A stretch of DNA of 61,747 nucleotides, the filler included. It is 7 parts of 7 records of this genome, joined end to end, with 100 filler letters (N's around TTAATTAATTAA, not from the genome) between each part and the next. Parts side by side here need not be neighbours in the genome. Positions count along the whole stretch, not along the records: positions 1 to 15,199 come from SRR31147125_8147; 6 more parts are not named here. The stretch is one strand, 5' to 3'. Below, one piece after another: positions 1 to 15,199 of the stretch. A program made the position numbers and the translations under genes. The notes beneath the pieces are model-generated. The model ran no database searches, was not told where the DNA came from, and was given only the letters and a program-made list of their open reading frames with translations. Numbering within the stretch: position 1 is the stretch's first letter; each line of letters starts with the position of its first letter.

Positions 1-1201
1 TTTTTCCGGTCCTGCTACTATCTCAACATGAGTTTGTTTTGTAGTGGCATTCATCATTTGTGAAGCAATGTAGCGGCACCAAATTAAACTATATAGTTGA
101 TATTGATCGTCATTCAGAAATCGTTTTATTTTTTTGGCGTTCTCTTTACGGATGTCGGGCTAATAGCTGTGTTTCCATTTAATTGGTTTTTGGCAGATTC
201 GTAATGATGAGGTTTTATTGGGATATATTCTTTACCGTAATCCTCAAAAATAAGTTCTCGTGCGTTTGTTGTTGCCAGCTCCGGCATGCAACATGAATCG
301 GTATAAATGTGAGTAATAAGACCCACGAACACAGGCTTGCCCAGTGATATCCCTTCATAAAGTTGTTGCGCAATTTGCATGGTTTTTTTTATTGTATAGC
401 CGAAACGTTCTGATGCTGCTTGTGCCAGGGTGCTGGTTGTAAAGGGTGGGAGGGGATCGTTGCTAATTTTATTAAGGGAGAATTGGCTGACAGTAAATGG
501 ATACTCTTTTAGGTTAATAATGACAGCCTTGGCATAATTCAAATCCGGAATATTCGGTTTTCCCCCTTTTATCAACTGGAGATCGGCATTAAAGACGTTA
601 TTTTTTTTTGTTTTTAGTTTTGCCTGAATACCATAATGTTTTTGCGGGGTGAACAAGTCAATTTCATGTTCCCTGTCACACAATAAACCCAGGGCAATGA
701 CCTGTGGTAAACAATTATCCGGTTTTTTTAAAGGCGTTTTAAGAACGGATTTTAACCTGGAATAGGCGAGTTGATTAACAATGAGTCGTGCTCTGTGTGC
801 TTGAGCAAAATTTTTATTGATTTTATGTGGATTTTGGATGGCTTTTTTGATGATCTTTTTAGTAATTTGGTCAAACGAAATTCGTTTAATGCAGATTCCA
901 GAGTCGCCAAGTTCCTGAGCTAAATGGAGTGCATTATCTTCACCCACCGGCCCCAAGGGAGTTGCTATTAAAATTTGATCAACATCTTTTAACTTTTTCT
1001 TAGCGAATTCAGGAAATTTTTTGTTTTACTCGTTGTTTGAAATACGGTCTCATAACCGTTGTTCGTGTTCAGGTCGAGATTTTCTTGTGTCAATTCCTTG
1101 ATATTCCCGAGGATGGGGGACACAAGAAAATCTTTACCTAAAAAATCACGAAAGATCTGGCTTTGATTCTCGTTCTCAACTAAAATCAACGAATTATTCA
1201 T
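1..1201 (-). CDS. topA: Degenerate DNA topoisomerase IA (TopA) homolog, split by two frameshifts and running off the window edge; catalytic motifs absent
   Basis: ORFs 989-1201 and 126-956 plus the continuation KRFLNDDQYQLYSLIWCRYIASQM below nt 126 follow TopA in order (LILVE..., RISFDQITKK, PFTTSTLAQAAS, KTMQIAQQLYEG). Both breaks fall in poly-A runs. It lies directly downstream of smg, the usual smg-topA arrangement. Confidence 0.85.
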
Positions 1202-1236
1202 AAAATCCTTTGATAGGATAAAAAACTCGAAATGTC

Positions 1237-1704
1237 CTAATGACGGAGCCCTGTCGATGTAAATTGAAAGTAACCATTGGAAGCACTATTTTCAAAATCT
1301 AAAACGACGACTGCAATCAGGTCCTGCATATCTTCAATATCCATTTGTGGTACATGCAGGTTAACAGCACGGTCGATAATGGATTCCATATCATCGTCAC
1401 TCAAAAGATTGAGTTCTCTGAGATGGAAAAGATAGCTAAATGCTTCGGATGAAATGGTATTTCGTTCCATTTCATTTAAATGACGCCACAGGGGGCGGGG
1501 AATACCGGAGTTTTTGTTTCGATAAGATATATCCAGTTTATCGCCATGGTTCATTAACCAGCCCATGGCTGACTGTATTTCATCATCGCTAAAGCCTCGT
1601 TCCGACAGAATATTCATAAGAAATTCCAGATCAACATCATCGAAAAAGTTCTGTTGTATCTCTTTCATGACAAATGTCAATATCTCAAGAATGCGTTTAT
1701 TCAT
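1237..1704 (-). CDS. smg: Smg/DUF494 family protein
   Basis: 155-aa acidic protein with LSERGFSDDEIQSAMGWL and a RHLNEME motif typical of DUF494; upstream of topA. Confidence 0.75.
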   Translation of the reverse strand: MNKRILEILTFVMKEIQQNFFDDVDLEFLMNILSERGFSDDEIQSAMGWLMNHGDKLDISYRNKNSGIPRPLWRHLNEMERNTISSEAFSYLFHLRELNLLSDDDMESIIDRAVNLHVPQMDIEDMQDLIAVVVLDFENSASNGYFQFTSTGLRH

Positions 1705-1902
1705 TTATAATAATCCCATAATCTTTCACATGAGCAACCATATTATCAGCATGAATTATCGTCTGTGATAACATCCTATTTGTGCTGAAAGATATGCTTC
1801 TCCCTTCAATTTAGGAAAAAATAATTTAAAAGCAAGTATTTCAATTAGCAGCTTTGTTCTGTTTGTTAAATTGTTGCAAATATGGTACCTGAATTAATCA
1901 GA

Positions 1903-4900
1903 TCACATGTTTTTACCACAACATTGTTTGTATTTTTTACCGCTACCACAAGGGCAGGGATCGTTACGACCGACCCGCGTGGTATTCACGACGGTTCGTT
2001 GTCTTCCTGATTGTTCTGCTATCCGATTTTGTTTTTGATTTTGTGCGCTTGTACTCTGTGCTTGTTTGTATATCTCTACCTGAGAATGCGAGGTTCTGAA
2101 ATTTTTCGGTTCTACGCGACGGATTTGTTTTTCTTCTATTTCACCACCAATATCGAATATTTTAAATAACGTACTTACCACATCCCGGTTGACACGATCA
2201 ATCATTTTAACGAACATTTTATAGCCTTCGGATTTGTACTCCAGGAGTGGATCTTTCTGACCATATCCCCTTAATCCAATTCCTTCCCGAAGTTCATCCA
2301 TGGCATTGAGATGTTGCCGCCAATTTTCATCAATTTTATCAAGAATATAATATCGCTCATATCTGATTGCCAGGTTATCGCCGATTTCACTAACACGCTT
2401 GCGGTATAAATCTTGTGCCCAGGTGCTTAATTTATCCATGACTAAATTTGGATCCATGCGTTCATCGCTATCATCCTGGAGACGTGGAGATTGTCTAAAC
2501 AGTAACCGGCTCTCTGCCTGAATGCGTGGTATCGCCGAGTCGTCCAGGTCTGTCTCATTACCCAGAACATTGCTTATCACAGAATAGATAGCGTCATCTA
2601 TTGACATCAAAACAGAATCGCGGACAATTTCGCTGCTTAATTTTTCCTGACTGAGTCTTTCCTCTTTATATGCATGGTCTTCATATAAAGCCGAATCCCA
2701 TGCGATCAACTCTTCTGTGAAAGATGCCAGAGTATTTACGTCGTTATTTTCCGGTATTGATTTTTGTGGTTTTTGCAAAAACATGCAATATAGCCTCTGT
2801 GAGAGCTGCTGTTGGGTTGTTGCGGATATTTGATTTGAAATCAACATTTCCCTGCATACAGCCATTATAGAGGCTTCAATAAATTCTTCGATAGAAGCAT
2901 GTGATAACATGAATGCATCATAAGCGGTCATGTTTTTTTGCAGCGTTTTTGTAAATGCGTTATGAACAGAATTTACGATTTGTGATGCTGTTTGGTCTTC
3001 GTCAGAGTTTGAAACGATGTTGAGATCTTTAAACACTCTTTCCAGGAATGCGTGCTGATCTGCGTTAAACTGATATTTGTCTTTACCATTTCCTTCCGGA
3101 TTTGAAGTAATGAGATACTCTAAAATAGAATTGACGAAATTTTGTAGAGAAAAATAACCCAGAATTCGATGTCTGATGGGCGCGTGATCATTCTCATTAA
3201 TCGATAATGAAACGATCCATTCCTGAAGCAATTCACGGATTTTGTCACGACGAATGGTTTTAATTTCGTTATGTCCGATATTGGGTTTGGCCAGGAATAC
3301 TCGCTCCAATGCATCAAAAAACTCATCCGTGTTCCATGAAACAGAGGGGACAGAGCTATTCAGATGCAGCGTCATCAGACCAGCCAGAAAGATGTTAATC
3401 ATTTCATGGATTGTTAATTCGGCAAAGGTCGATTCATTGATACCTGTAAGGTTTTCTTGTACCATACTGGTGTATTTTTCTTTAACCCAATCAACTAATT
3501 GATTCTCAAATTGATCTGCAGTTAAATCTGCAGTTGGATTTTGAATGAAATCCGGATAACTCTTGAATATTCGTTCAATTTCATATTGGATGCCTTCAAA
3601 ATTCCAGACTGATATATCTCTTGTACCGGCATCATGCAATCTGATCTTTATTTTTACAAGCTCAGCAAGAAGCTTGTCCATGGAACAATAGCCCATGATT
3701 CGATGTCTTAATTGCGTTTCTTTTAAATGGCTATCTTCCTGCAACCGGGTGTCTATCCATGTTCCGATGGTTTCTTTTATGGATGCCTGATTTTGAGACT
3801 CCAGATCCGCCTCTGTAAATTCAGGCTCGCGATTGAAAAATCGTTGTAGATCCTGAATCAGGTCTTTAAGGTTCCATTCATCCTGATTGTTTTCTTCGCT
3901 AAAATAGATTTTGGTTTTCGATTCGACAAAGTCACTTGTCTGGGCAAAGCCCATTAAATTTTGTCTTCGTTTGTATATGATTTTTCGTTGTTCATTTAAT
4001 ACATCGTCATATTGAAGCAGGTTTTTTCGAATATCAAAATTGCGTTCTTCTACTTTCTTCTGAGCTCGCTCAATTGATCTTGTGATAAGTGGATGTTCGA
4101 TTCGTTCACCTTCTTCAGAAGGACCCAGTTTTGTCATAATGTTCGCTATTCGATCAGAGCCAAACAGACGCATCAGATCATCTTCCAGGGACAGATAAAA
4201 ACGAGATGATCCGGAATCACCCTGACGGCCGGATCGTCCTCTTAATTGACGATCGATTCGTCGAGCTTCATGTTTTTCAGAGCCTACAATATGAAGGCCG
4301 CCTTTTTCAATCACTTGAGGAGATAGTTTGATATCCGTCCCTCGACCAGCCATGTTGGTTGCAATTGTTATAGCACCCGGCACACCTGCTTTTGCCACAA
4401 TTTCCGCTTCATTTTGGTGATATTTCGCGTTCAGGACAGTGTGGAATCGACCGGATTCCAGTTCCCGGCTCACATCTCCTTTTTTCAGCCAGTTGGCTAT
4501 TGGAACGCCTCTTTGGGTAAACATCTGGCTTAATTTTTGTGAAACGTCAACAGAGACTGTACCTATCAGGACAGGACGACCATTATTGTGCATTTCAATG
4601 GCTTCATCGATGACGGCATTGTATTTTTCAAGTTTTGTTCTATAAATGACATCGTTCTGGTCATCTCGGACGACAGGTCTATTCGTCGGGATGACGATCA
4701 CTTCAAGTTTATAAGTACTAAAAAATTCCTGAGCCTCTGTTTCTGCCGTACCGGTCATGCCAGCCAGCTTTTCATAGATTCGGAAAAAATTCTGAATTGT
4801 GACGGTTGCCAGCGTTTGACTTTCAGACTGAACTTCGACACCCTCTTTTGCTTCCAGAGCTTCGTGCAAACCATCACTAAATCGTCTTCCCGGCATTAAA

Positions 4901-7900
4901 CGTCCGGTAAATTGATCGACAATCATGACTGCTTTTCGACCTTTTGTACCTGAGCCTTTGCCTCTGGTTTCTACTTCATCAACAGATTTAACAACGTATT
5001 CAACATCTTTATGATAGAGTGTATAGGCGCGTAAGAGTTGTGAAATGTTTTGAATACGTTCTTCTATATCATTGTATTCCCGCCATAAACGATCTCGTTG
5101 ATTTTCCAGCAGTTTTCGTGGTTTTCGATCAAAATAGAGCCGGCACCAATGTTCAATTTCTTCCGGAGTCAATACAGTATTGGGCGCATGAGCTTTTGAA
5201 ATCAGTTCATTTAATTCACCGTCGTCCAGAATGATTTTCTTTGCTCGCAGATGAGCTTTATCCTTTGATATAATACTATCCAGCTCAGCCCGGGTGTTTA
5301 CCTTTTTACTGCTCAGCCGCAGAATTTCTTCCCGAAATTGACGCAGTTCTTCAGAAAAACTGAAAAAGGGCAAACCATCAAGTAATTGTGTATTTACGGC
5401 TTTTCGTAATTTTGTTGGATAATTTTTTTCACTTAATTCAAAGATAGCATCCAGTTCGATATCCGAATTATCTAACAGGGCCAGCAAGCGCTCTGCGATC
5501 TGTTTGCGATCATCGGCATCATTTAACAGGGTGTGTACACCATTGTCGGACAATCCATTAAATCGTATTTGATCGATATTTTCAGTATCGACTGAGAAAT
5601 CCGCATCGAGTTCAAAATATCTTTTCAGTAATCGTTGTTTTTCAGAAGAGGACAAATCAGATCGATAAAGATTAGAAAACAGGATATTCATAATCCTGGC
5701 GATTCGTTCCACTTCTTCAAAGCGCCGGGAAATGCTTTTGGTGTCTTTGATATCTGTCTGGTCTACAGAAGAATTAAGGAAAGCATCCAGGCTGAATCGG
5801 AGGCTGATAGAATTTTCATTCTGGTCAGCCGTATGGGTTTCCCGCCACTCTTTTATTTTATTCTCGATTTCTGTATACGAATGACCAAGTAAACGATCTT
5901 TTTCCTGAGGAGCCAGACCAACTATTTTTCCTTCTTTAAAACTAAAAAGGTCTTTAAGGTTTTGCCTGGATGTTTGCAGGTTTTTATCAAAAGTGGACAC
6001 TACTGAGCGAGTTTGATCTGCGAAATCGGAAATAAACGCATTAAATGTATCCGTAACTTTCAAATTATAAACAGATGTCTGGTCACCCTGGGTTTGGGTG
6101 TCTACCTGGTAAAATAAAGCAATATTGTTCTCTGTTTTACCTTCAGGGCTATTTGTTATAAATTCTCCAATTTCCTGCAGATCCTGAGCCAGACGCTCCA
6201 CAGAGGTGGCCCGGGCAGCATAGTCAAATGAGACCTGATTTAACGTCTGATCCATAATTTTTTGAATTTCACTATCCCTGAGCTCAACAATGCTTCTATC
6301 AGGCAAGACATAAATATCCGGATTGCCACCTAAAATAGCAATTCTACCTTTTTCTGTAATATTTCGAACTATAGTACCATTATGTGAAAAATCAAAATAT
6401 TCTCGTTTTCGTTCATTTAGTGCATTCGTATCGCCCCCATTTTGTCCCCCATTTTTTGCAGAGCTGATATCTTTGTTTTTTAACAAAGCATTCAGTTTGG
6501 CAATAAAGGGAACCAGCATCGGATTACCATTATTTTTAAGAGCGATAAGGGCTGCTTTACCATCTTCTGTCAGGCCGATTGGGCAACCAAACTGTTTTTC
6601 AGTTACAAAAAAGGTCTCTTGCAGTAGACGTCTTTTATCCTGAATGGAACGACTTGCCGGGCCTTCATCCACATCAGCTTCTTGCTTTATCTTTTCAAAT
6701 AAAGGCGGTAAAAAATCGACAAGTGCTTTAAAAGAGCTGTTTTGTTCGGCGCTTTGAATGAATTCAAGGGTAGCAGTGGTGAGTCCATTTATTATTCGGT
6801 CACCTTTTTTAGCAAAATTAAAATATTGTCTCCATGCAGATGCTTTGTCTGTTTTTTTATTTTGAATGAGATCGGATATGTGATCATGTAATTTATTTAG
6901 GATTTTATCCAGAGTGTCCAGGAATCGCGTGTCTTCATCCGTTATTTTTGCATTTGTACTACAGAGGGCAATTTTCCCTTCCAGAGTGAGGCCATCACAA
7001 TAACCGGTAATAGAGTCGGTAGTAAAATAACGACTAGCATTTTTTTGCTCGCTCAGGTTTGCTAATAAATCATCAATTTTATCTAATTGCACGATCTGTT
7101 GAGCCACATCCTGATCACGGCCACCGGACAGAAAGATTCTGCCTTTTTCTGTAATGTCAAGAACGTGGGTTTTTTCGTCAATTATATAATAGAGTTCAGC
7201 ATCTACCTCGGACATGGTTTTATTTATTTCATATTGTCCCTGCAGGCGTTCGATAAGTTTTTTGACCCAAAATTCAGAAGTTAGAATTTCCAGGAGAGCG
7301 GGATTTTTGGGATTTCCTCGTTGAGCCCGTAACAGCATTAATGCGGCTGTTTCTTCATCTTTTTCTAATAGTTCCTTGCCATCTTTGACGAGTTTGTCAA
7401 CAAGCTCTTTTTGGCGTTTATAAAGATTGGCGACGACAGGTTTCAATTCATAGTAAACATTACGTGGTGCACCAACAGCTCCGGAAATAATAAGAGGTGT
7501 TCGAGCTTCGTCAATTAAAACACTATCAACTTCATCAACAATCGCATAATGTAGACCTCGTTGCACCACAGACCAGATATCTACAGCCATGTTGTCGCGG
7601 AGATAATCAAAACCAAATTCATTGTTCGTACCATAGGTAATATCCGCGTTATAAGCTTGTCTTTTCTCGTTCGGATCCATATCATTGTGCAACGCTGCTG
7701 TGCGGAGGCCGAGGAAATCATAAATTGCACCCATCCACTCACGGTCACGCTGTGCAAGATAATCGTTGACTGTGATTAAATGAGCCCCTTTACCTTCAAG
7801 GGCATTTAGATACAATGGAAAGGTAGCGACAAGCGTTTTACCTTCACCTGTAGCCATTTCAGCGATTTTTCCTTCATGTAGAACAATTCCACCCAGAATT

Positions 7901-8211
7901 TGCACGTCATAAGGAATCATATTCCATTCAATTTCCTGACCGCGTACGAGCCATTTTTTACCCACAAGGCGACGACAGGTATCTTTGACAGCGGCAAAGG
8001 CTTCCGGCAGGATATCATCCAGGGTCTCACCCATGCGGAGACGATATTTAAATTCCAGAGTTTTCGCTTTTAATTCATCATCTGTAAGTTTTTTATAGCC
8101 TTCAGCGATTTCATTTATTTCATTAACGCGCGGTTGTAATCTTTTGGCTTCACGTTCATTTTTCGTGCCGCCCATTACTTTCGCAAACGCTTTTTCGATC
8201 TTGGTAAACAT
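1903..8211 (-). CDS. secA: Preprotein translocase ATPase SecA, giant 2102-aa form with two large repeat expansions
   Basis: Walker [93 protein letters not shown] and C-terminal SEC-C motif [18 protein letters not shown] are all intact in one uninterrupted frame. Confidence 0.97.
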
Positions 8212-8263
8212 GGAACAGAGCCTCTCTTAGAAAATTAAAAAACTACTCTATTAGAAAAACCAT

Positions 8264-8283
8264 CGCCGCTCGAAAGAGCGGCG
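8264..8283 (-). terminator. GC-rich hairpin between nusB and secA (possible terminator or 5'-UTR structure of secA)
   Basis: Perfect 8-bp stem CGCCGCTC/GAGCGGCG with 4-nt loop; on the minus strand it is followed by ATGGTTTTT. Confidence 0.45.
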
Positions 8284-8333
8284 TTAATATAGGTAAATTT
8301 AAAAAAATATTAATCTCTTTCAATAATATTCAA

Positions 8334-8858
8334 CTAATCTTTACGACCCGATGTTTCTTTGAGTCCACGCCCGGATTTCACGAGTTGGTTTGTTTTTTTT
8401 AGTTCCAACAAAATAGCGTCCAGAATGCCATTTACGAACCGTCCGCTTTTTTCCGTGCTGTACACCTTGGATAATTCGATGGCCTCATCAATAGAGACCT
8501 TTGGAGGAATATCAAAAAAATATAAAAATTCGCAGATAGCCATTCTCATAATAAGTTTATCAATAATAGCAATTCGATTAAAGTCCCAATTTGCTGCTCG
8601 TTTTATGATATAGCTATCTAAATCCTGGCGATTTGCGTATGTTTTCTCTATCATTTTGTCTGCGAAATCCATCGCTTCAGCGTCTGCATCCGGATTGTCA
8701 CGAATTTGTCCGAGGACCATTTGCAGGGAATTCCCTGATAGTTCAAGGGCATAGAGGCCTTGTAATGTAATTTCACGAGCATGGCGCCTTGTGCCCGCAG
8801 AAGATGAGGATTTATACTCTTCATCTTCAAATCGTGTTGAATTATTTGATGTAATCAT
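8334..8858 (-). CDS. nusB: Transcription antitermination factor NusB
   Basis: RRHAREITLQGLY, NWDFNRIAIIDKLIMR, PPKVSIDEAIELSK, FVNGILD. Start uncertain; ATG at 8858 chosen over the ORF-track start at 8885. Confidence 0.93.
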   Translation of the reverse strand: MITSNNSTRFEDEEYKSSSSAGTRRHAREITLQGLYALELSGNSLQMVLGQIRDNPDADAEAMDFADKMIEKTYANRQDLDSYIIKRAANWDFNRIAIIDKLIMRMAICEFLYFFDIPPKVSIDEAIELSKVYSTEKSGRFVNGILDAILLELKKTNQLVKSGRGLKETSGRKD

Positions 8859-9768
8859 GCCACCCGTAAGTATCTTCACATTCACCGTTTACATAGTCAA
8901 AATAACGTTTTTGAATTTTTTCTGTTAATGGACCTCGGCGGCCTTTACCAATTTGAATTCGATCCACAGAACGAATTGGTGTAATTTCAGCAGCCGTACC
9001 AGAGAAGAAAATCTCATCTGCAATGTATAACATCTCTCTGGGGATGTTTCTTTCCACTACTTTGATATTTAATTCTTCAGCGATCTTTAAGACGGAATCG
9101 CGAGTGATGCCAGGCAAAATACTTGAGGCAAAGGCTGGCGTATAAATGACACCGTCTCTAATGACGAATATATTTTCACCACTTCCTTCACTGACCTGAC
9201 CATTGACGTCCAGGCCGATACCCTCTGTAAAACCATTTTGCATGGCTTCCATTTTAATTAATTGAGAATTCATATAATTGGAGCCAGCTTTGGCCAGGCT
9301 TGGCATTGTATTGGGAGCCATTCTATTCCAGGACGACACGCCTACATCAACACCAATCTCAATACCTTCTTCTCCCAAATAGGCTCCCCAGTTCAGCGCT
9401 CCAATAACAACGTCAACAGGACATTTGCTGGGATCCACTCCAAGGCTATGATAGCCACGATAAATGATAGGACGAACATAAGCGGATTCAAAACCATTTA
9501 TTTTTATGGTTTCATTACAAGCGCTTATAACTTCATCCAGGCTGAATTCAATCGGCATTCTATAAATTTTAGCCGAATCAAACAACCTGCGGATATGATC
9601 CGCAAGTCTGAATATGCTTGGCCCATGCGGCGTTTTATAACATCTCATTCCTTCAAACACACTTGTGCCATAGTGGATAACATGAGACATAACATGAATT
9701 TTCGCATCCGGCCAATCTACAAATTGACCATTAACCCAAATTTTTCCTTTTTCATCTCTTGGATCCAT
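8842..9768 (-). CDS. ilvE: Branched-chain amino acid aminotransferase
   Basis: HYGTSVFEGMRCY, KAGSNY, EGSGENIF, ILPGITR, GTAAEITPI (PLP fold type IV). Confidence 0.95.
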   Translation of the reverse strand: MDPRDEKGKIWVNGQFVDWPDAKIHVMSHVIHYGTSVFEGMRCYKTPHGPSIFRLADHIRRLFDSAKIYRMPIEFSLDEVISACNETIKINGFESAYVRPIIYRGYHSLGVDPSKCPVDVVIGALNWGAYLGEEGIEIGVDVGVSSWNRMAPNTMPSLAKAGSNYMNSQLIKMEAMQNGFTEGIGLDVNGQVSEGSGENIFVIRDGVIYTPAFASSILPGITRDSVLKIAEELNIKVVERNIPREMLYIADEIFFSGTAAEITPIRSVDRIQIGKGRRGPLTEKIQKRYFDYVNGECEDTYGWHDYIK

Positions 9769-9807
9769 TAAAGTCTCCCAAACATTTTTTATTTTAAATT
9801 TCTGTTG

Positions 9808-11505
9808 TTAGCGCAGATCTTTCGCGCGTAATTGTATGTTTTTTCTTCCCATATATTCGTTTTCTTCTATCACGTAAGCAAGATCCAGATCATGATTGCC
9901 GGGATTGAGGCGATAATATAAATCACCCATTCCAAATCCGATGACATCGAATACGTGACTGTTTTGACGAATTTTAAATTTGAGGTGATTCATTCCAACA
10001 ATGGATGGCGTGCCAACCACCTGAACATGTTGACTCATAAAAACGGGTCGTGTGTTGTGCGGGCCAAAGGGAGCGAACATTTTAAGTAATTTAACGAGTT
10101 TCGGATCAATGTCCTCAAGGCTTAGTTCCGCTTCGATGGCCAGCTTTGGAATGAGATCTTCCTCATTCAAATGGTCACCAGCGATTTGTTCAAACTTTTC
10201 AATAAACGCTGGTATATTCTTTTGTTCGATTGTTAAACCTGCGGCATACTTGTGACCACCGTAACCTATTAACAGGTCTTCACATTTTTTAAATGCATCG
10301 TATAGGTCGAAACCTTCAACACTTCGGGCTGAACCTTTTCCCACACCATCTTCTATAGAAATGAGAACAGTCGGACGATAAAATTTTTCAACAACACGGG
10401 AAGCGACAATACCAATAACGCCGGAATGCCAGCCTTCCTTATGAAGAACCAAAGAACGCGTTTGTGCAGGATCGAATTGTTGCTCCGCTTGCTCAAGAGC
10501 TTCATGAAACGTTTCTTCATCAACGCTTTTACGGTTTCGATTTTCCTGCTCCAGTATAGCTGCAATTTCGGTGGCTTCCTGTGCATCTTCGGTTGTCAGT
10601 AATTTAACAGCTCTTTCAGCATCTCCCATGCGACCGACCGCGTTAATTCTGGGAGCCAGAACAAAAACGATCTGGCCAGTGCCAATTTCCCTGTGCCGTA
10701 AATTAGAGGCATTTATAAGAGCCGCTAATCCGATATTTTCTGTTTCATTTAGCTTTGCCAGGCCATTCTTTACAAAAATTCTGTTTTCATCCACAAGCGG
10801 AACGATATCCGCGGCTGTTCCGATTGCGACAAGTTCAATATATTTCTCCAGAATGGAAAGATCTATTTCCATTCTTATCAATAAACCCTGAGCAAGTTTA
10901 TATGCGACACCGACGCCAGCGAGCTGTTTAAATGGATAACCACAATCATGTCTTTTGGGATCAAGAACTGCAATTGCATTGGGTAAAACAGGCGTAGGCT
11001 CGTGATGATCACTTACGATAACATCGATTCCATAGGAACGGGCGCGATCAATCTCATCGTGGCCGGTTATACCGCAGTCCACGGTGATGATCAAGTTAAT
11101 GCCATTCTCGTTGGCTTTATCAATTCCTTTATCTGAAAGGCCATAACCTTCCAATTGTCTATCCGGAATATAATAAAATACGTTTGACCCAAGTTCCTTT
11201 AAAATAAGATAAAGAAAAGAAATAGAGGTGATTCCATCTACATCGTAATCTCCATAGATTAAAATATTTTCATCACTCAGCACGGCACGGCGTAATCTTT
11301 CTATTGCCTTGTCCATGTCTTGCATCAAAAAAGGATCATTGAGAAAATCAATTGAAGATTTAAAAAACTTTTTTGCTGTTTCCAGATTGTCTATTCCACG
11401 TCTGAGTAATATTTGAGAAATGAGAAGGGGAACGTTTAAACTGGTAGCAAGAGAATTTACTTCTTCTTTGAAATTATCATTTGCCATTACCCAATTAAGG
11501 TCCAT
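9808..11505 (-). CDS. recJ: Single-stranded-DNA-specific exonuclease RecJ
   Basis: YGDYDVDG, TVDCG, DHH, GTAADIVPL, PRINAVGR, GSARS, GGHKYAAG. Confidence 0.96.
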   Translation of the reverse strand: MDLNWVMANDNFKEEVNSLATSLNVPLLISQILLRRGIDNLETAKKFFKSSIDFLNDPFLMQDMDKAIERLRRAVLSDENILIYGDYDVDGITSISFLYLILKELGSNVFYYIPDRQLEGYGLSDKGIDKANENGINLIITVDCGITGHDEIDRARSYGIDVIVSDHHEPTPVLPNAIAVLDPKRHDCGYPFKQLAGVGVAYKLAQGLLIRMEIDLSILEKYIELVAIGTAADIVPLVDENRIFVKNGLAKLNETENIGLAALINASNLRHREIGTGQIVFVLAPRINAVGRMGDAERAVKLLTTEDAQEATEIAAILEQENRNRKSVDEETFHEALEQAEQQFDPAQTRSLVLHKEGWHSGVIGIVASRVVEKFYRPTVLISIEDGVGKGSARSVEGFDLYDAFKKCEDLLIGYGGHKYAAGLTIEQKNIPAFIEKFEQIAGDHLNEEDLIPKLAIEAELSLEDIDPKLVKLLKMFAPFGPHNTRPVFMSQHVQVVGTPSIVGMNHLKFKIRQNSHVFDVIGFGMGDLYYRLNPGNHDLDLAYVIEENEYMGRKNIQLRAKDLR

Positions 11506-11567
11506 AAATAGCTAACTCCAACCGGTCTCTAGTATATTAAATATGAGGAAAATTACTTTTAAAAAAA

Positions 11568-11933
11568 TCCAAAGCAGGTCGATAAGCCGAATTCTGTAAT
11601 CCAATGGTTATTGGATTGACGATCATTTATCTAGGACATCGATTGCCCGATATCTCAAGCGACCTACCCAAGAGTCAAATGAGGCGGACGACCTCTTCTC
11701 TCTTATTTGGTCTTGCTCCGGGTGGGGTTTACCATGCCTCTGATGTCACCATCAAAGCGGTGAGCTCTTACCTCACCCTTTCACCTTAACCCTGATAAAA
11801 ATCAGGGATGTTTGCTTTCTGTGGCACTTTCCTCGCCTCACGACGAGTCCGCGTTACGGACCACCCTGTCCTGTGGAGTTCGGACTTTCCTCATCCGGAT
11901 CGAGCCGGACGCGATCGTCTGACCTGCTTTGGA
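11568..11933 (-). ncRNA. rnpB: RNase P RNA (bacterial type A)
   Basis: Minus strand has GAGGAAAGTCCG near the 5' end, AGTGCCACAGAAA, GGTAAACCCCACCCGGAGCAAG and ACAGAATTCGGCTTAT near the 3' end. The ends TCCAAAGCAGGTC/GACCTGCTTTGGA pair as P1. Confidence 0.96.
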
Positions 11934-11992
11934 CTTTTATTTTAACATAGTTGAGCTATATCATCTACAAATAAATCCTTGATTTGAAAAAA

Positions 11993-12739
11993 TTACATAT
12001 TACCGTTATCGTCATCCAGGCAATTTCCCTTATAATCAGGGCTCCATACAAGAATTCGTCCACAAACTTCGCAAAAATAGAGTTTGTTCATCATCCTGAT
12101 TTCCAGGCCACGCTGAGGTGGTATCCGAGAGGAACATTTGCTGCAGGCGCCATCTTTAAGAAGAGCAAGGGCACTACCACCCCTGCCATTACGGATACGC
12201 TCATATGTTCCTATAACCGGTTTTGAGAGTTGAGTAATAATCGTGTTTCGTTGCGCTAAAAGAAGTTCTTCTTCTTCACGCGTTTTTACCAGTAACTCAT
12301 CCAGGACGGCATTTGTTTCAGTTAATTCTTTTTTCTTTTCCTCAACTTCTTGTTCCAACGTCTTTGCTTCAGTTTCTGAATTGGTAATCACCTCGTCAAT
12401 TTCCAACGTATCTAATTCGAGTTGATCAATCGCTTCTTTTGCGTTTTCAATTTCAAGCGTCACAGCATCATACTCTTTATTAGTTTTGACCTGGTAAAGC
12501 TGAGTTTGATATTTTTTTAGTTTGTCCTGAAGCAGAGCAAGATCACCTTCAAATTTGACGTGATCGGATTTCAAATTCTTATTTTGTAGACGTTTGTTCT
12601 CGAGGTTTTGTCCCAGATTTTCAACTTCCGTAGATAGAGCCTTAACTTTTTGAGGGAAATCCCCTTTGGATTGCTCTAATTTTAGTATTTTATAGTCAAC
12701 TTCCTGCAGATCGATTAGAGCTTCCAAAGCAATTTTCAA
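11993..12739 (-). CDS. Coiled-coil protein with C-terminal C4 zinc ribbon (DUF164/CT398-like)
   Basis: Long coiled coil, KTNKEYDA, YERIR, CSKC...CEVCGRIL. TTG start at 12739 follows an AGGAG RBS. Confidence 0.88.
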   Translation of the reverse strand: MKIALEALIDLQEVDYKILKLEQSKGDFPQKVKALSTEVENLGQNLENKRLQNKNLKSDHVKFEGDLALLQDKLKKYQTQLYQVKTNKEYDAVTLEIENAKEAIDQLELDTLEIDEVITNSETEAKTLEQEVEEKKKELTETNAVLDELLVKTREEEELLLAQRNTIITQLSKPVIGTYERIRNGRGGSALALLKDGACSKCSSRIPPQRGLEIRMMNKLYFCEVCGRILVWSPDYKGNCLDDDNGNM

Positions 12740-12796
12740 TTTAACACTCCTTGCACAAACAGTACACATTTCTTGTTAGACGTGATTTATTATTTA

Positions 12797-12832
12797 TAAA
12801 AAAAAGTGCACCCAAATAAATGAATGCACTTT
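12797..12832 (-). terminator. Intrinsic terminator-like hairpin in the leader of the zinc-ribbon gene
   Basis: Minus strand AAAGTGCATTCA-TTTATT-TGGGTGCACTTT followed by a T run. Confidence 0.55.
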
Positions 12833-12949
12833 AATAACTATAGCATACCCACAATGTTAATTGTGTTCGAAAATCCGAACAATATTTTTTACTCTCAGTT
12901 TTCAAAGAAGTATCAAACTCCTGAATAGAATAACAGTTCTTTTTCTTTA

Positions 12950-12978
12950 AAGATAACCGTATATGCATTAAAAATCAA
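12950..12978 (-). promoter_or_regulatory. Putative sigma70-type promoter
   Basis: TTGATT-17 nt-TATCTT on the minus strand; AT-rich context raises the chance of a coincidental match. Confidence 0.4.
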
Positions 12979-13059
12979 GCAAAAAGTGGGATCTGTTAAT
13001 TAAGTGATGTTAAAGAGCTGTCACTCTCTGTTTTTTAATTCAGGACGATTTTGTCATAG

Positions 13060-14220
13060 CTATATAGTGTCATGAAAACATTGATATGCACCGTTTTGTA
13101 TCAAAAGAGATGGTGTGCCATTTTGCATATAAAGATAAATTGATTTTATTTTTATACGTGGCTGCGTTTCAGGTATGTAAATTCGATCAATATGAATCAC
13201 GTGTTCTGGTGCAGAGAACTGGGCTGGACCCACCATTCCGCCAAAATGATCACTACGACCAAAAGCGATATGAAATCCAAGTTTTTCATCCAATAACACC
13301 TCTCCAATGGGCTTGAGACCAAAGTCCGCAAGGACTCCAAATCCCAGTTCAGCCATATTGGCGTAGGCAGGTTCGTTTTTTATCGTTTTTTTCTCTTTTT
13401 CACTAACAGGTCCTTCACTCACAATGTCAATTGCCTGATTTTGGTGGATAGAATAGATCACGATTTCATCGTCAAATTGAACAGGTAACAAGCCATTGGT
13501 TTCGGATTTTTCATCCATTTCACCTTCGTAGGGGACGATGTATGTTTCGCCACTTGGGAGGTTGCCTGCGGTTCCCTTGAGTGGAAATCGGCCGCCACTT
13601 GCATGAGCATTGCGAAAGCGTAAATCAAATTTCATGTTATATTCATGCTGATCATCCACAAGAAAGGTTGTTTCTGCCAATCTTGCCATATCCAGTTTTT
13701 CTTTCAATAGTTGTGTTCTCGCATTAATCTCATTATAGTCCAGTTTCAGGGCAGAAATCATGTTAACCGAGAATCCAGGCATGGTGGCCGCCCGAAAACC
13801 GTATTCTGCGGCCGCTATTTTCATAGGTGCTGTGGCAGAATATTCCGTCAGAACGAGAAAGAGATGACATTGGGTAAAGACCGATTTTTTGGATATGACA
13901 GGCGCTTCCTTGTCAATGGCATCAAACGCAGGTGGGAGAGAATCCTTTAAAAGGTACATATTCTCAGGTAAATCGGCATTGTTGGATCCAACATTCTTAT
14001 AAGCAACAAGTTTAATTTTATCTAAATTTAATAACGATAATTGTTTTTCAAGTTTTAGAGTCCAATCCAATGCTATTTGGCGTCTTTTAGCCCAATTTTT
14101 ATTATCCTCAGTTTTCCTAGTTGGCAAGTCTACCATTATCGCTAACACCCGATGTTCAGACAAAGGAGGAAAAACGGACATGACCAGATTCGTGAGTTCA
14201 GTTGTTGTAAGAGTTTCCAT
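13060..14220 (-). CDS. Aminopeptidase-like metalloprotein (thermophilic metalloprotease M29-like)
   Basis: GNLPSGE, AELGFG, DEKLGFHIAFG and HID motifs. Confidence 0.7.
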   Translation of the reverse strand: METLTTTELTNLVMSVFPPLSEHRVLAIMVDLPTRKTEDNKNWAKRRQIALDWTLKLEKQLSLLNLDKIKLVAYKNVGSNNADLPENMYLLKDSLPPAFDAIDKEAPVISKKSVFTQCHLFLVLTEYSATAPMKIAAAEYGFRAATMPGFSVNMISALKLDYNEINARTQLLKEKLDMARLAETTFLVDDQHEYNMKFDLRFRNAHASGGRFPLKGTAGNLPSGETYIVPYEGEMDEKSETNGLLPVQFDDEIVIYSIHQNQAIDIVSEGPVSEKEKKTIKNEPAYANMAELGFGVLADFGLKPIGEVLLDEKLGFHIAFGRSDHFGGMVGPAQFSAPEHVIHIDRIYIPETQPRIKIKSIYLYMQNGTPSLLIQNGAYQCFHDTI

Positions 14221-14544
14221 AAAGCCCTATCCTTGATTAAGAATGTTATTTTTTGAAAAAATGAGTTATATATTTATTCTGAAAGATTCATTTTTATCTA
14301 TAGATAGTATTGTAATTTTTAACAAGAAAACATAGTGATAATTTTGTTTTTTTATTCAGGATCTGGAAAAAAATTACCTGTGCTATAAAAAAGATAGATG
14401 GGGCAATGCCATCCAAAAGAAATATCCTGATTCGAGTTCTAAAGAAAAAGATGGTTGCATCTTTCTATATGAACAATATATTAAAATATGAGAATAGTAA
14501 AATAAATTTACAGGTATGACTTTAACTCTCATTCCGAGGGAATA

Positions 14545-15199
14545 ATGGAACTTCTTTATAAAGAAATATTAAATCATACACCTACGTGTACTTGTGTTAC
14601 GGACAAATGGTTTCAAATTATTTTCGCAAATCGAGCTTTTTTGAAGCTGACAGGATACAATAGCGAAGAATTTATCGGATCTAATCTGCAAGACCATTTC
14701 GCGTATATCGCTCCTGAATTGGATCTAACCTGTCTTGTCGAAGAATATACCAAAAAGAAAGTTGATGACCATTTTCCAGGTGTGCTGGTTCAAAAAAATG
14801 CAGGAATGAAGCCGGTTATCATTCGTGCAGAACTGGTTTGTTCGAAATCTAAAGATTGTTTTCTGGTTTTCAAAATCGAGGAACATTTTCTCCAAATTAA
14901 TGCCTCCAAGCCTGGTAATAAAGACGTGTTGAGTCTTTATGATGATAAATTGCAAAGTGCTTTTATACTTGATACACAAGCGAGATGTGTATATGTAGCC
15001 GATCACATTTTAAAACGGACAGGTCAATCCGAAAAATCATATTTAGGAAAGAGTGTTTTGGAGCTGATAATTGAGGAAGACAAATCGACGGCAGCGACTT
15101 ATTTTAATAGAACGTTAGAGGGTGAAAATCTTTTACCTGTTGAATTGGGATTGCATACAGATAAAAGTAATCTGATGTGGGTCGTTGTTCATTCGTCTC
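14545..15199 (+). CDS. PAS-domain sensor protein (partial, cut by contig end)
   Basis: Two PAS-like repeats (IIFANRAFLKLTGYNSEEFIG; CVYVADHILKRTGQSEKSYLGKS). Confidence 0.75.

Follow-up and report, generated by a model that had tools for sequence, protein, structure and literature searches.

SecA, the motor that threads preproteins through SecYEG, is usually taken to be roughly fixed in size, at 800–1100 residues. Here we describe a gene for a SecA of 2102 residues, referred to below as the giant SecA, which occupies positions 1903..8211 on the minus strand of a 61,747-nucleotide stretch of DNA (the window). The window joins seven parts of seven records of one genome end to end, with 100 filler letters between parts; positions 1 to 15,199 come from record SRR31147125_8147. 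All nucleotide coordinates are those of the window unless another contig is named. As judged from sequence comparison and predicted structure, the extra ~1100 residues of the giant SecA are not foreign domains but tandem duplicates of SecA's own small modules at two sites, with about nine copies in the PPXD, which clamps the substrate, and about six in the helical wing domain (HWD).

The setting of these two domains is given by structural studies of ordinary SecA. In their openly available parts, these studies place SecA flat on SecY with NBD1, NBD2, PPXD and HWD at its four corners, and describe a PPXD that swings through ~70 degrees, from the side of the wing to that of NBD2, a wide-open state in which the PBD packs on the wing and scaffold, and, in cells, preprotein density atop the PPXD (PMC9926265, PMC11610655, bioRxiv 10.1101/2025.04.25.650208).

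Identity of the giant protein

The open reading frame (ORF) consists of 2102 codons and a stop, starts with ATG and contains zero internal stops. Its GC content is even along its length, at 0.37–0.45, and its predicted product has a mass of 241 kDa and a pI of 5.5. Seven Pfam families matched the protein at E ≤ 0.1, namely five SecA families, DEAD and one sub-threshold DUF. SecA_DEAD (PF07517) was found in two stretches (E 3.1e-121) and P-loop_SecA (PF21090) at E 5.4e-69; SecA_SW (PF07516, E 1.3e-54) was also split into two stretches, with the wing array between them. SecA_PP_bind (PF01043) matched residues 1050–1120 through profile positions 56–110 of 110 only, which is its C-terminal half, and SEC-C matched the extreme C-terminus. 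The best solved relative is the SecA of B. subtilis (1tf2, E 9.8e-206), whose alignment falls into three pieces: residues 19–270 correspond to B. subtilis 16–253, residues 1056–1458 to 293–667, and residues 1917–2100 to 686–842.

A search of 5.8 billion protein clusters returned 44 further clusters of 2049–2111 residues, with 53–95% identity and 100% query coverage, and together with the window protein these give an aligned family of 45 sequences. Walker A (GEGKT), Walker B (DEVD, residues 226–229), the finger loop LRGYGQKDP and the Cys/zinc tail are invariant in all 45. The segments LMPGRR (residues 1105–1110) and ESQTLA (residues 1130–1135), which align to the PP loop and clamp strand of B. 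subtilis SecA, are mostly invariant in the same 45 (loop names and B. subtilis numbering from the open text of PMC9926265). Every known functional element of the PPXD (stem, C loop, PP loop, clamp strand and 3-beta tip, as defined in the open text of PMC9926265 and PMC11610655) falls outside the insertion and shows little or no variation.

Scores against curated models agree with this assignment. Both NCBIfam SecA equivalog models gave scores above their cut-offs (NF009538, 955.1 bits against 814; TIGR00963, 897.1 bits against 800), while the FCB-type model NF009536 (1118 positions) scored 1080.5 bits, under its cut-off of 1493. All four SecA2 models stayed under their cut-offs (TIGR03714, 626 against 930; TIGR04221, 504 against 725; TIGR04397, 767 against 1085; NF012136, 550 against 1100). 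By every sequence criterion tested the giant protein is a member of the SecA family. An initial reading made from the letters of the window (the sequence-only reading) had described an uninterrupted 6.3-kb frame with the SecA ATPase, two-helix-finger and SEC-C motifs, and the codon count, the Pfam matches and the invariance across the family confirm it.

Location of the additional residues

For comparison, 85 ordinary SecAs were translated from their loci and grouped into profiles of 7 (855–996 residues), 17 (1000–1059 residues) and 61 sequences (at least 1095 residues). These loci came from a contig scan with the whole-family alignment, which, through the universal SecA motifs, returned ordinary SecAs only. 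The giant-family profile aligns to the ordinary profiles over residues 1–362, from residues 1036–1055 to residues 1486–1502, and from residues 1933–1945 to the end. Relative to the 85 ordinary proteins, the net insertion in the PPXD covers residues ~363–1036 (~675 residues, 77 kDa) and that in the wing residues ~1499–1944 (~445 residues, 52 kDa). A helical segment at residues ~262–340, which is missing in B. subtilis, is common to ordinary FCB-type SecAs and lies outside the novel sequence.

The excess of ~1100 residues given in the sequence-only reading is right, at 2102 against ~1009 residues in the nearest ordinary forms, and its placement in the PPXD and HWD is borne out by the alignments to 1tf2 and to the ordinary profiles. 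Its first block, residues 365–1035, almost exactly equals the net PPXD insertion. Its second, residues 1425–1950, coincides with the whole wing array but includes the native unit, and is therefore larger than the net insertion. Two blocks were correctly recognized; the description of them as two extra domains did not hold, as each is an array of duplicated sub-modules of SecA itself.

Sequence evidence for two repeat arrays

When the 45-sequence profile was compared with itself by hhalign, residues 1608–1942 aligned on 1428–1759 (E 2.5e-16, a shift of ~180 residues), residues 1477–1937 on 1393–1844 (E 6.1e-15, a shift of ~90) and residues 395–960 on 341–790 (E 1.2e-14). The unit boundaries drawn from these comparisons and from the predicted structures are listed in Table 1.

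Units of the wing array share the pattern W-x3-L-x3-L-x3-F ... W. Five of the 15 possible pairs align with a probability of at least 90% (units 0-2, 1-3, 0-1, 1-5 and 1-2, at 92.6–98.8%), and units 0 and 1 match the HWD of the ordinary SecA profiles at 69–90%. The end of the long scaffold helix is duplicated at the start of each unit, and its sequence RQNLMGF recurs there as RHRIMGY and RHRILGY.

Each unit of the PPXD array begins like a native 21-residue element. Pairs were counted when they reached a probability of at least 75% in an alignment longer than 12 columns. Three pairs of neighboring units whose alignments spanned 12 columns precisely were excluded because they reflect the 12-residue overlap built into adjoining units. 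Nine of 36 pairs remained, at 77–96% probability, and link units 1–6 and 8. The ordinary PPXD profile is matched by unit 1 at 99%, by unit 5 at 94% and by unit 6 at 83%. In ordinary SecAs the counterpart of the array is the first part of unit 1 followed directly by the last part of unit 5, as would be left by a tandem duplication inside the unit. All 15 units of the two arrays are present in 45 of 45 aligned sequences, with lengths that vary by a few residues. The net charges of the arrays are -18 and -25, against family medians of -21 and -19.

Predicted structure of the arrays

AlphaFold2 was run with the family alignment on the isolated inserts. The wing array (residues 1425–1950) was predicted as entirely helical, with a mean pLDDT of 90.4 and a pTM of 0.87, and the PPXD region (residues 262–1050) with a pLDDT of 84.3 and a pTM of 0.71. 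In the PPXD model, nine beta-hairpins coincide exactly with the nine units drawn from sequence, and after every hairpin come a short helix and then longer ones. To judge from the high pTM values, each modeled array would be a single ordered body rather than beads on a string.

Among 48,161 representative chains, the top structural match of the wing model was the HWD of E. coli SecA: residues 1–73 of the model superpose on E. coli residues 680–754 (Z 7.9, root-mean-square deviation (rmsd) 2.0 Å over 72 residues). This match is of middling score, and fits the predicted repeat architecture. Foldseek returned no PDB match at E ≤ 0.001 for either array model, and the ESM Atlas no usable match for either array. 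A complex prediction that combined PPXD units 1–5 (residues 338–700) with the wing array (residues 1428–1950), run without an alignment and with an uncertain partner fold, gave a score of 0.00, which speaks neither for nor against contact between them.

A separate observation concerns the segment just before the PPXD array. Residues 1–68 of the PPXD model (residues 262–330 of the protein, window 7222–7428) were the only part matched with VIA-align, by TPR-like helices with the presequence receptor Tom20 at their head (Z 7.7, rmsd 2.7 Å over 62 residues). This element, common to ordinary FCB SecAs, sits in the signal-peptide-binding domain; the score is middling, and the predicted likeness may only reflect a common helical hairpin.

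Taken together, the units resemble one another and the native unit, share a predicted fold and follow each other head to tail, as in recognized tandem-repeat proteins, more weakly so in the case of three units (7 and 9 of the PPXD array, 4 of the wing array). We regard the architectural and evolutionary part of this explanation as very probably correct.

Conservation, distribution and probable status as the only SecA

Several independent assemblies carry the gene. A 62,924-nucleotide contig from another assembler, possibly from the same sample, spans positions 1500–8700 with 0 differences in the ORF. An 11,936-nucleotide contig from a different study is colinear over positions 1500–6681 at ~93% identity, its sole gap being an in-frame 6-nucleotide deletion, and a third sequencing run tiles the ORF at ~92%. 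There are no DNA-level tandem repeats in the ORF, and the two short traces of DNA similarity left in it fall at the two most conserved repeated protein motifs. Apparent joints in the read mapping were disregarded, as their sides measured 20–39 nucleotides, fell at conserved SecA motifs and came from the contigs of other organisms. No intein, homing-endonuclease, transposase or other mobile-element domain was found among the Pfam matches of the whole protein at E ≤ 0.1.

The 44 related clusters derive from NCBI, ENA, JGI and Logan assemblies, and the next full-length matches after them are ordinary SecAs at ~20% query coverage. Where depositors named an organism, it was 'candidate division KSB1 bacterium'. 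The products are recorded as 'hypothetical protein' or 'SEC-C metal-binding domain-containing protein', and at JGI as SecA. Searches with each insert, which the sequence-only reading had called for, returned the giant SecA family only: phmmer with the PPXD insert found five proteins among 1.84 billion representative proteins, all giant SecAs or their fragments, and a word-indexed search with the wing insert found 15, all of the same family.

Giant secA genes occur in five species-representative genomes, one of them a complete 6.5-Mb chromosome. The phylum of that complete relative was surveyed through 167 species genomes; this set contains two unpublished ones (G159 and G163), which fall in the group with ordinary SecA. 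The PPXD insert matched in 46 of the 167, strongly in 42 (best E 7.7e-75 or lower). In 34 of these 42 it lies in frames of 2060–2166 residues, and in the other eight the frames are cut by contig ends or broken. For the remaining four of the 46, the match reaches E ~5e-4 only and falls inside ordinary SecAs of 1010–1135 residues.

In one of the 42 genomes (G090, contig C1, 77610–79548) the giant secA is read in two adjacent frames of 804 and 1324 residues, with the break within the PPXD array, which may be a sequencing error or a real disruption.

SecA_SW was matched in 158 of the 167 genomes. The best match in the 42 insert-bearing genomes is split and weak (E 1e-26 to 1e-35) in every case except G003; an ordinary SecA_SW match is missing from 41, and G003 has one at 2.2e-65. 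The 115 other genomes (113 without the two unpublished ones) have a single strong match, in listed frames mostly of 1010–1183 residues. By PF07517, the giant gene stands alone in four of the five related genomes, the complete chromosome included. All five carry one SecY, of 453–460 residues, and one copy of RecA. SecB was found in none of the five, with a control that detected SecB in only 4 of 14 reference genomes. SecD and SecF form an ordinary adjacent pair in 3/3 genomes searched, with frames of 687–701 and 308–321 residues.

In G003 the ordinary secA lies next to guaB on a contig of 950 kb (C23), within a terminal stretch of at least 150 kb with ~50% GC. Elsewhere on this contig (100–120 kb and 400–420 kb) GC content is 37–41%, and in the rest of the genome, including the giant-SecA and SecY loci, 38–40%. 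The stretch is likely a chimeric contig or a large foreign segment.

On the genome sequences of these relatives, the giant protein appears to be the housekeeping and sole SecA of a KSB1-type clade of uncultured bacteria. The sequence-only reading had proposed that it might be the primary SecA and had suggested looking for a second, normal one in the source genome. The search, made in the relatives, found none in 41 of 42, which together with the single SecY and the scores against the SecA and SecA2 models speaks for that proposal.

Evolution and selection

A FastTree tree of 119 SecAs (1048 columns) places its 17 giants in a single clade (support 100, stem 0.65), and their sisters, weakly supported, are a Cloacimonadota SecA and P0055. 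A quick IQ-TREE tree of 46 rows separates 10 giants (support 100, stem 0.48) from 10 ordinary SecAs of the same phylum (support 95). Since the gene tree does not resolve the backbone, the placement of the origin inside the phylum rests on genome taxonomy. The anticipated lineage specificity of the expansion agrees with the single clade in both trees and with its presence in 42 of 167 genomes of one phylum. Read from these sequences, the arrays were gained once and then kept. Intermediates with two to five units were absent among the 85 ordinary SecAs from loci and the 10 from the same phylum.

The ratio of nonsynonymous to synonymous substitution rates (dN/dS) was estimated for two close pairs of giants. 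For L001 and L004 it is 0.036 in the core, 0.144 in the PPXD insert and 0.12 in the wing insert; for L002 and L005 the values are 0.022, 0.051 and 0.053. Both arrays are under purifying selection (dN/dS 0.05–0.14), and the inserts evolve 2–4 times faster than the core. Invariant residues inside the inserts are mostly Trp, Leu, Phe and Gly, which is typical of a fold core.

L001 and L004, whose giant SecAs are near-identical (branches of 0.016 and 0.021), come from bins labeled Actinomycetota and Calditrichota, and at least one of these labels is wrong.

Other over-long SecAs, from public metagenomes, were found elsewhere in the tree: P0089 (1705 residues), P0092 (1644 residues) and P0094 (1580 residues) have inserts of 550–665 residues where the giant has its PPXD array. 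In sequence, these inserts show no relationship to the arrays of the giant (hhalign probability <4%), which together with the different tree positions points to independent events. From these sequences, the distal lobe of the PPXD seems to be a hot spot at which large insertions recur. P0094 is labeled Chitinivibrionales and has a DUF3106 annotation.

Possible roles of the arrays

The conserved motor, clamp, finger and zinc tail make the usual threading of preproteins most likely, in which the giant SecA would push them through one normal SecYEG channel. The PPXD and HWD would form two mobile outer corners that flank the preprotein entry route, and the arrays, grown from surface elements that leave the clamp loops free, would ride on these corners. 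Since both domains flank the entry route, the most likely effect of the arrays would be a larger surface on which unfolded preproteins or partners are received and held, both ahead of threading and while it proceeds, as a built-in holding or docking platform. That they capture and hold unfolded preproteins, and so form a putative holding platform, is advanced tentatively, at somewhat less than even confidence. The data do not tell apart the roles suggested in the sequence-only reading, namely adaptation to very large substrates, a built-in chaperone surface or the docking of extra partners. It is rather doubtful that the two arrays together form a putative receiving chamber or holdase at the mouth of the motor, by which one 241-kDa polypeptide would do the work that falls in other bacteria to SecA together with separate chaperones or adaptors. 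If this were true, a modular binding function would emerge for the HWD, a domain that still has no clear role in ordinary SecA. As a whole, a housekeeping SecA with self-duplicated arrays, which would enlarge the receiving surface, is, with good confidence, the best explanation of the data.

Several points weigh against this explanation. Three units, 7 and 9 of the PPXD array and 4 of the wing array, have weak sequence similarity to the others (best probability 40%, 40% and 63%) and are counted mainly because of the predicted repeat of secondary structure. The two structure predictions cover the inserts in isolation and draw on no more than 45 sequences, which are fairly close to one another; superpositions on known structures score in the middle range (Z 7.9 for the HWD), and the searches above matched neither array as a whole. 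The 241-kDa product and any binding by the arrays are predictions from sequence and models. Array acidity says little either way about the role, and the absence of SecB, given its detection in 4 of 14 control genomes, lends weak support to a built-in chaperone. The giants are not nested in the ordinary SecAs of their phylum, with an unresolved backbone and a long stem of 0.48–0.65, and G003 also encodes an ordinary SecA of at least 884 residues.

The arrays might instead be docking or spacing scaffolds for partners rather than for substrates, which we consider possible but unlikely. The wing array would then reach along the membrane to SecDF, YidC or a neighboring translocon, and the PPXD array to another SecA or to the ribosome. 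For M. pneumoniae, in-cell maps, in the openly available part of their description, show the HWD of SecA touching SecDF and SecA bound to the ribosome exit (bioRxiv 10.1101/2025.04.25.650208), SecD and SecF are present as an adjacent pair in the genomes searched, and the pTM values of 0.87 and 0.71 suggest rigid bodies rather than flexible brushes. However, no conserved lineage-specific partner gene lies beside secA, where the neighbors are nusB, smg, ilvE-like and recJ; SecY has an ordinary length, and no matching expansion is obvious in the frames of SecD and SecF. Acidic arrays are also unlikely to lie on an acidic membrane or rRNA, a consideration that decides nothing.

An origin by constructive neutral evolution, in which replication slippage in tolerant surface loops produced arrays without a specific ligand that were then locked in by packing, so that selection now only keeps them folded, is improbable. 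The unrelated inserts of P0089, P0092 and P0094 imply that the PPXD site tolerates large additions, and both the faster evolution of the inserts and the fold-core character of their invariant residues would suit such an origin. Against it stand the low dN/dS values and the retention of all 15 units in every aligned sequence, despite the cost of ~1100 residues in an abundant essential protein, as well as the long stem of the giant clade, which means that the core changed too.

A specialized accessory protein of the SecA2 kind, serving special substrates while a normal SecA does the housekeeping, is very improbable: the second SecA of G003 would fit it, but that copy lies in the ~50% GC stretch at a contig end that suggests a chimera or foreign segment, no ordinary SecA_SW match exists in 41 of 42 giant-bearing genomes, the complete chromosome is giant-only by PF07517, each of the five genomes has one SecY, and the four SecA2 models fell under their cut-offs as the two SecA models exceeded theirs. 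There is a negligible chance that chimeric assembly produced the ORF, or that it contains inteins or mobile-element domains, two of the outcomes that the sequence-only reading had named as fatal to it, given the same architecture in 44 other clusters and 42 genomes from many studies, colinear independent contigs, even composition, DNA free of repeats able to mislead an assembler, Pfam matches free of intein or mobile-element families, and inserts that resemble SecA itself.

A housekeeping SecA with self-duplicated arrays would imply that the two mobile outer domains of SecA can be multiplied nine-fold and six-fold with the motor intact, in a form kept over long evolutionary time, in at least 42 species-level genomes. 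Such a protein would be a natural experiment on the purpose of the PPXD distal lobe and wing domain, the amplified units presumably being the useful ones, and would illustrate cleanly how an essential enzyme can grow through amplification of its own modules. There is also a practical consequence, as the NCBI product names could lead genome surveys to score the clade wrongly as lacking SecA.

Gene neighborhood and coordinates

The giant secA lies among housekeeping genes (Table 1). The order CT398-like - recJ - ilvE-like - nusB - secA - smg is conserved in related loci up to the contig ends, and the context recJ-ilvE-nusB-secA-smg had been read correctly from the window. Downstream of smg, positions 1–1285 on the minus strand hold a topA-like gene in three frames (989–1285, 126–1025 and 1–159, the last running off the window), the middle piece of which matches Pfam Topoisom_bac at positions 44–224 of 411 only. 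The gene has either two frameshifts, as a pseudogene or through sequence errors, or an unusual arrangement.

Table 1. Features of the giant secA gene and its neighbors in the window
Feature	Residues	Window position	Strand	Basis or conservation
N-terminus, first NBD1 part, PPXD stem and proximal helical PPXD part up to first hairpin unit	1-362	7126..8211	-	no large gaps against ordinary-SecA profiles; invariant residues
Walker A	122-126	7834-7848	-	invariant residues
PPXD array	338-1035	5107..7200	-	self hhalign, unit pairs, match to ordinary PPXD profile, AlphaFold2
PPXD units, nine, predicted as beta-hairpin, short helix and long helices	338-391, 392-459, 460-530, 531-601, 602-696, 697-751, 752-861, 862-919, 920-1035		-	self-comparison and AlphaFold2
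PPXD net insertion relative to ordinary SecA	363-1036	5104-7125	-	profile alignment
Distal conserved PPXD (C loop, PP loop, clamp strand), second NBD1 part, NBD2, long scaffold helix	1037-1427	3931..5103	-	Pfam, 1tf2 alignment, invariance
Helical wing array	1428-1950	2362..3930	-	self hhalign, unit pairs, match to ordinary HWD profile, AlphaFold2, superposition
Wing units, six, ~90 residues each	1428-1517, 1518-1607, 1608-1696, 1697-1781, 1782-1874, 1875-1950		-	self-comparison and predicted structure
Remaining scaffold with two-helix finger, basic linker, SEC-C zinc-binding tail	1951-2102	1906..2361	-	Pfam, 1tf2 alignment, invariance
Finger loop LRGYGQKDP	1980-1988	2248-2274	-	invariant
SEC-C tail	2082-2100	1912-1968	-	Pfam
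smg (DUF494), downstream neighbor		1237..1704	-	adjoins giant secA in 4/5 related loci; fifth contig ends before it
nusB, upstream neighbor		8334..8885	-	kept in 5/5 related loci
Class IV aminotransferase (ilvE-like)		8842..9768	-	kept in 4/5 related loci
recJ		9808..11505	-	kept in 5/5 related loci
Bacterial RNase P RNA class A, full length		11567-11930	-	307 bits; directly upstream of recJ
CT398-like coiled-coil/zinc-ribbon gene		11993-12769	-	gene order shared with related loci up to contig ends

Comparison with known SecA proteins

No description of a SecA of ~2000 residues or of PPXD/HWD duplication was found in the openly searchable literature, which leaves aside subscription papers and supplements, and the openly available part of the Zhuqueibacterota paper (PMC11683472) contains 0 occurrences of SecA. 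The sequence-only reading had suggested that the architecture might be undescribed, and within this literature the suggestion holds, the sequences themselves being public under vague names.

Canonical SecA, as known from B. subtilis (1tf2/1m6n), E. coli (2fsf) and T. maritima (3din), has the same five domains in the same order, and its Walker motifs, clamp loops, two-helix finger and zinc tail are also conserved in the giant. It differs in size, with solved chains of 778–997 residues against 2102, and in having one hairpin unit and one wing unit where the giant has about nine and about six. FCB-type SecAs (~1000–1150 residues, NF009536/PRK12901; 1037–1183 residues in ordinary members of the same phylum) belong to the same broad part of the SecA tree and share with the giant both the helical PPXD segment at residues ~262–340 and the motif 'DEK..(L/I)TEKG....G.P..(F/Y)V(I/L)PD', but carry a single unit at each site, and the giant scores under the NF009536 cut-off (1080 against 1493).

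Large insertions at the PPXD site, repetitive-looking and helical, also occur in P0089, P0092, P0094 and P0110 (1350 residues), the last with an insertion in the wing region as well; these inserts are unrelated in sequence to those of the giant, and none of the four proteins has both arrays. Accessory SecA2 and 'secondary SecA_DEAD' proteins are likewise members of the SecA superfamily with lineage-specific changes. Such proteins accompany a housekeeping SecA as a second copy and tend to be shorter or truncated, whereas the giant is the only copy, complete and longer. The giant SecA differs from every described SecA that we found in its size, in its two arrays and in the origin of these arrays from SecA's own modules.

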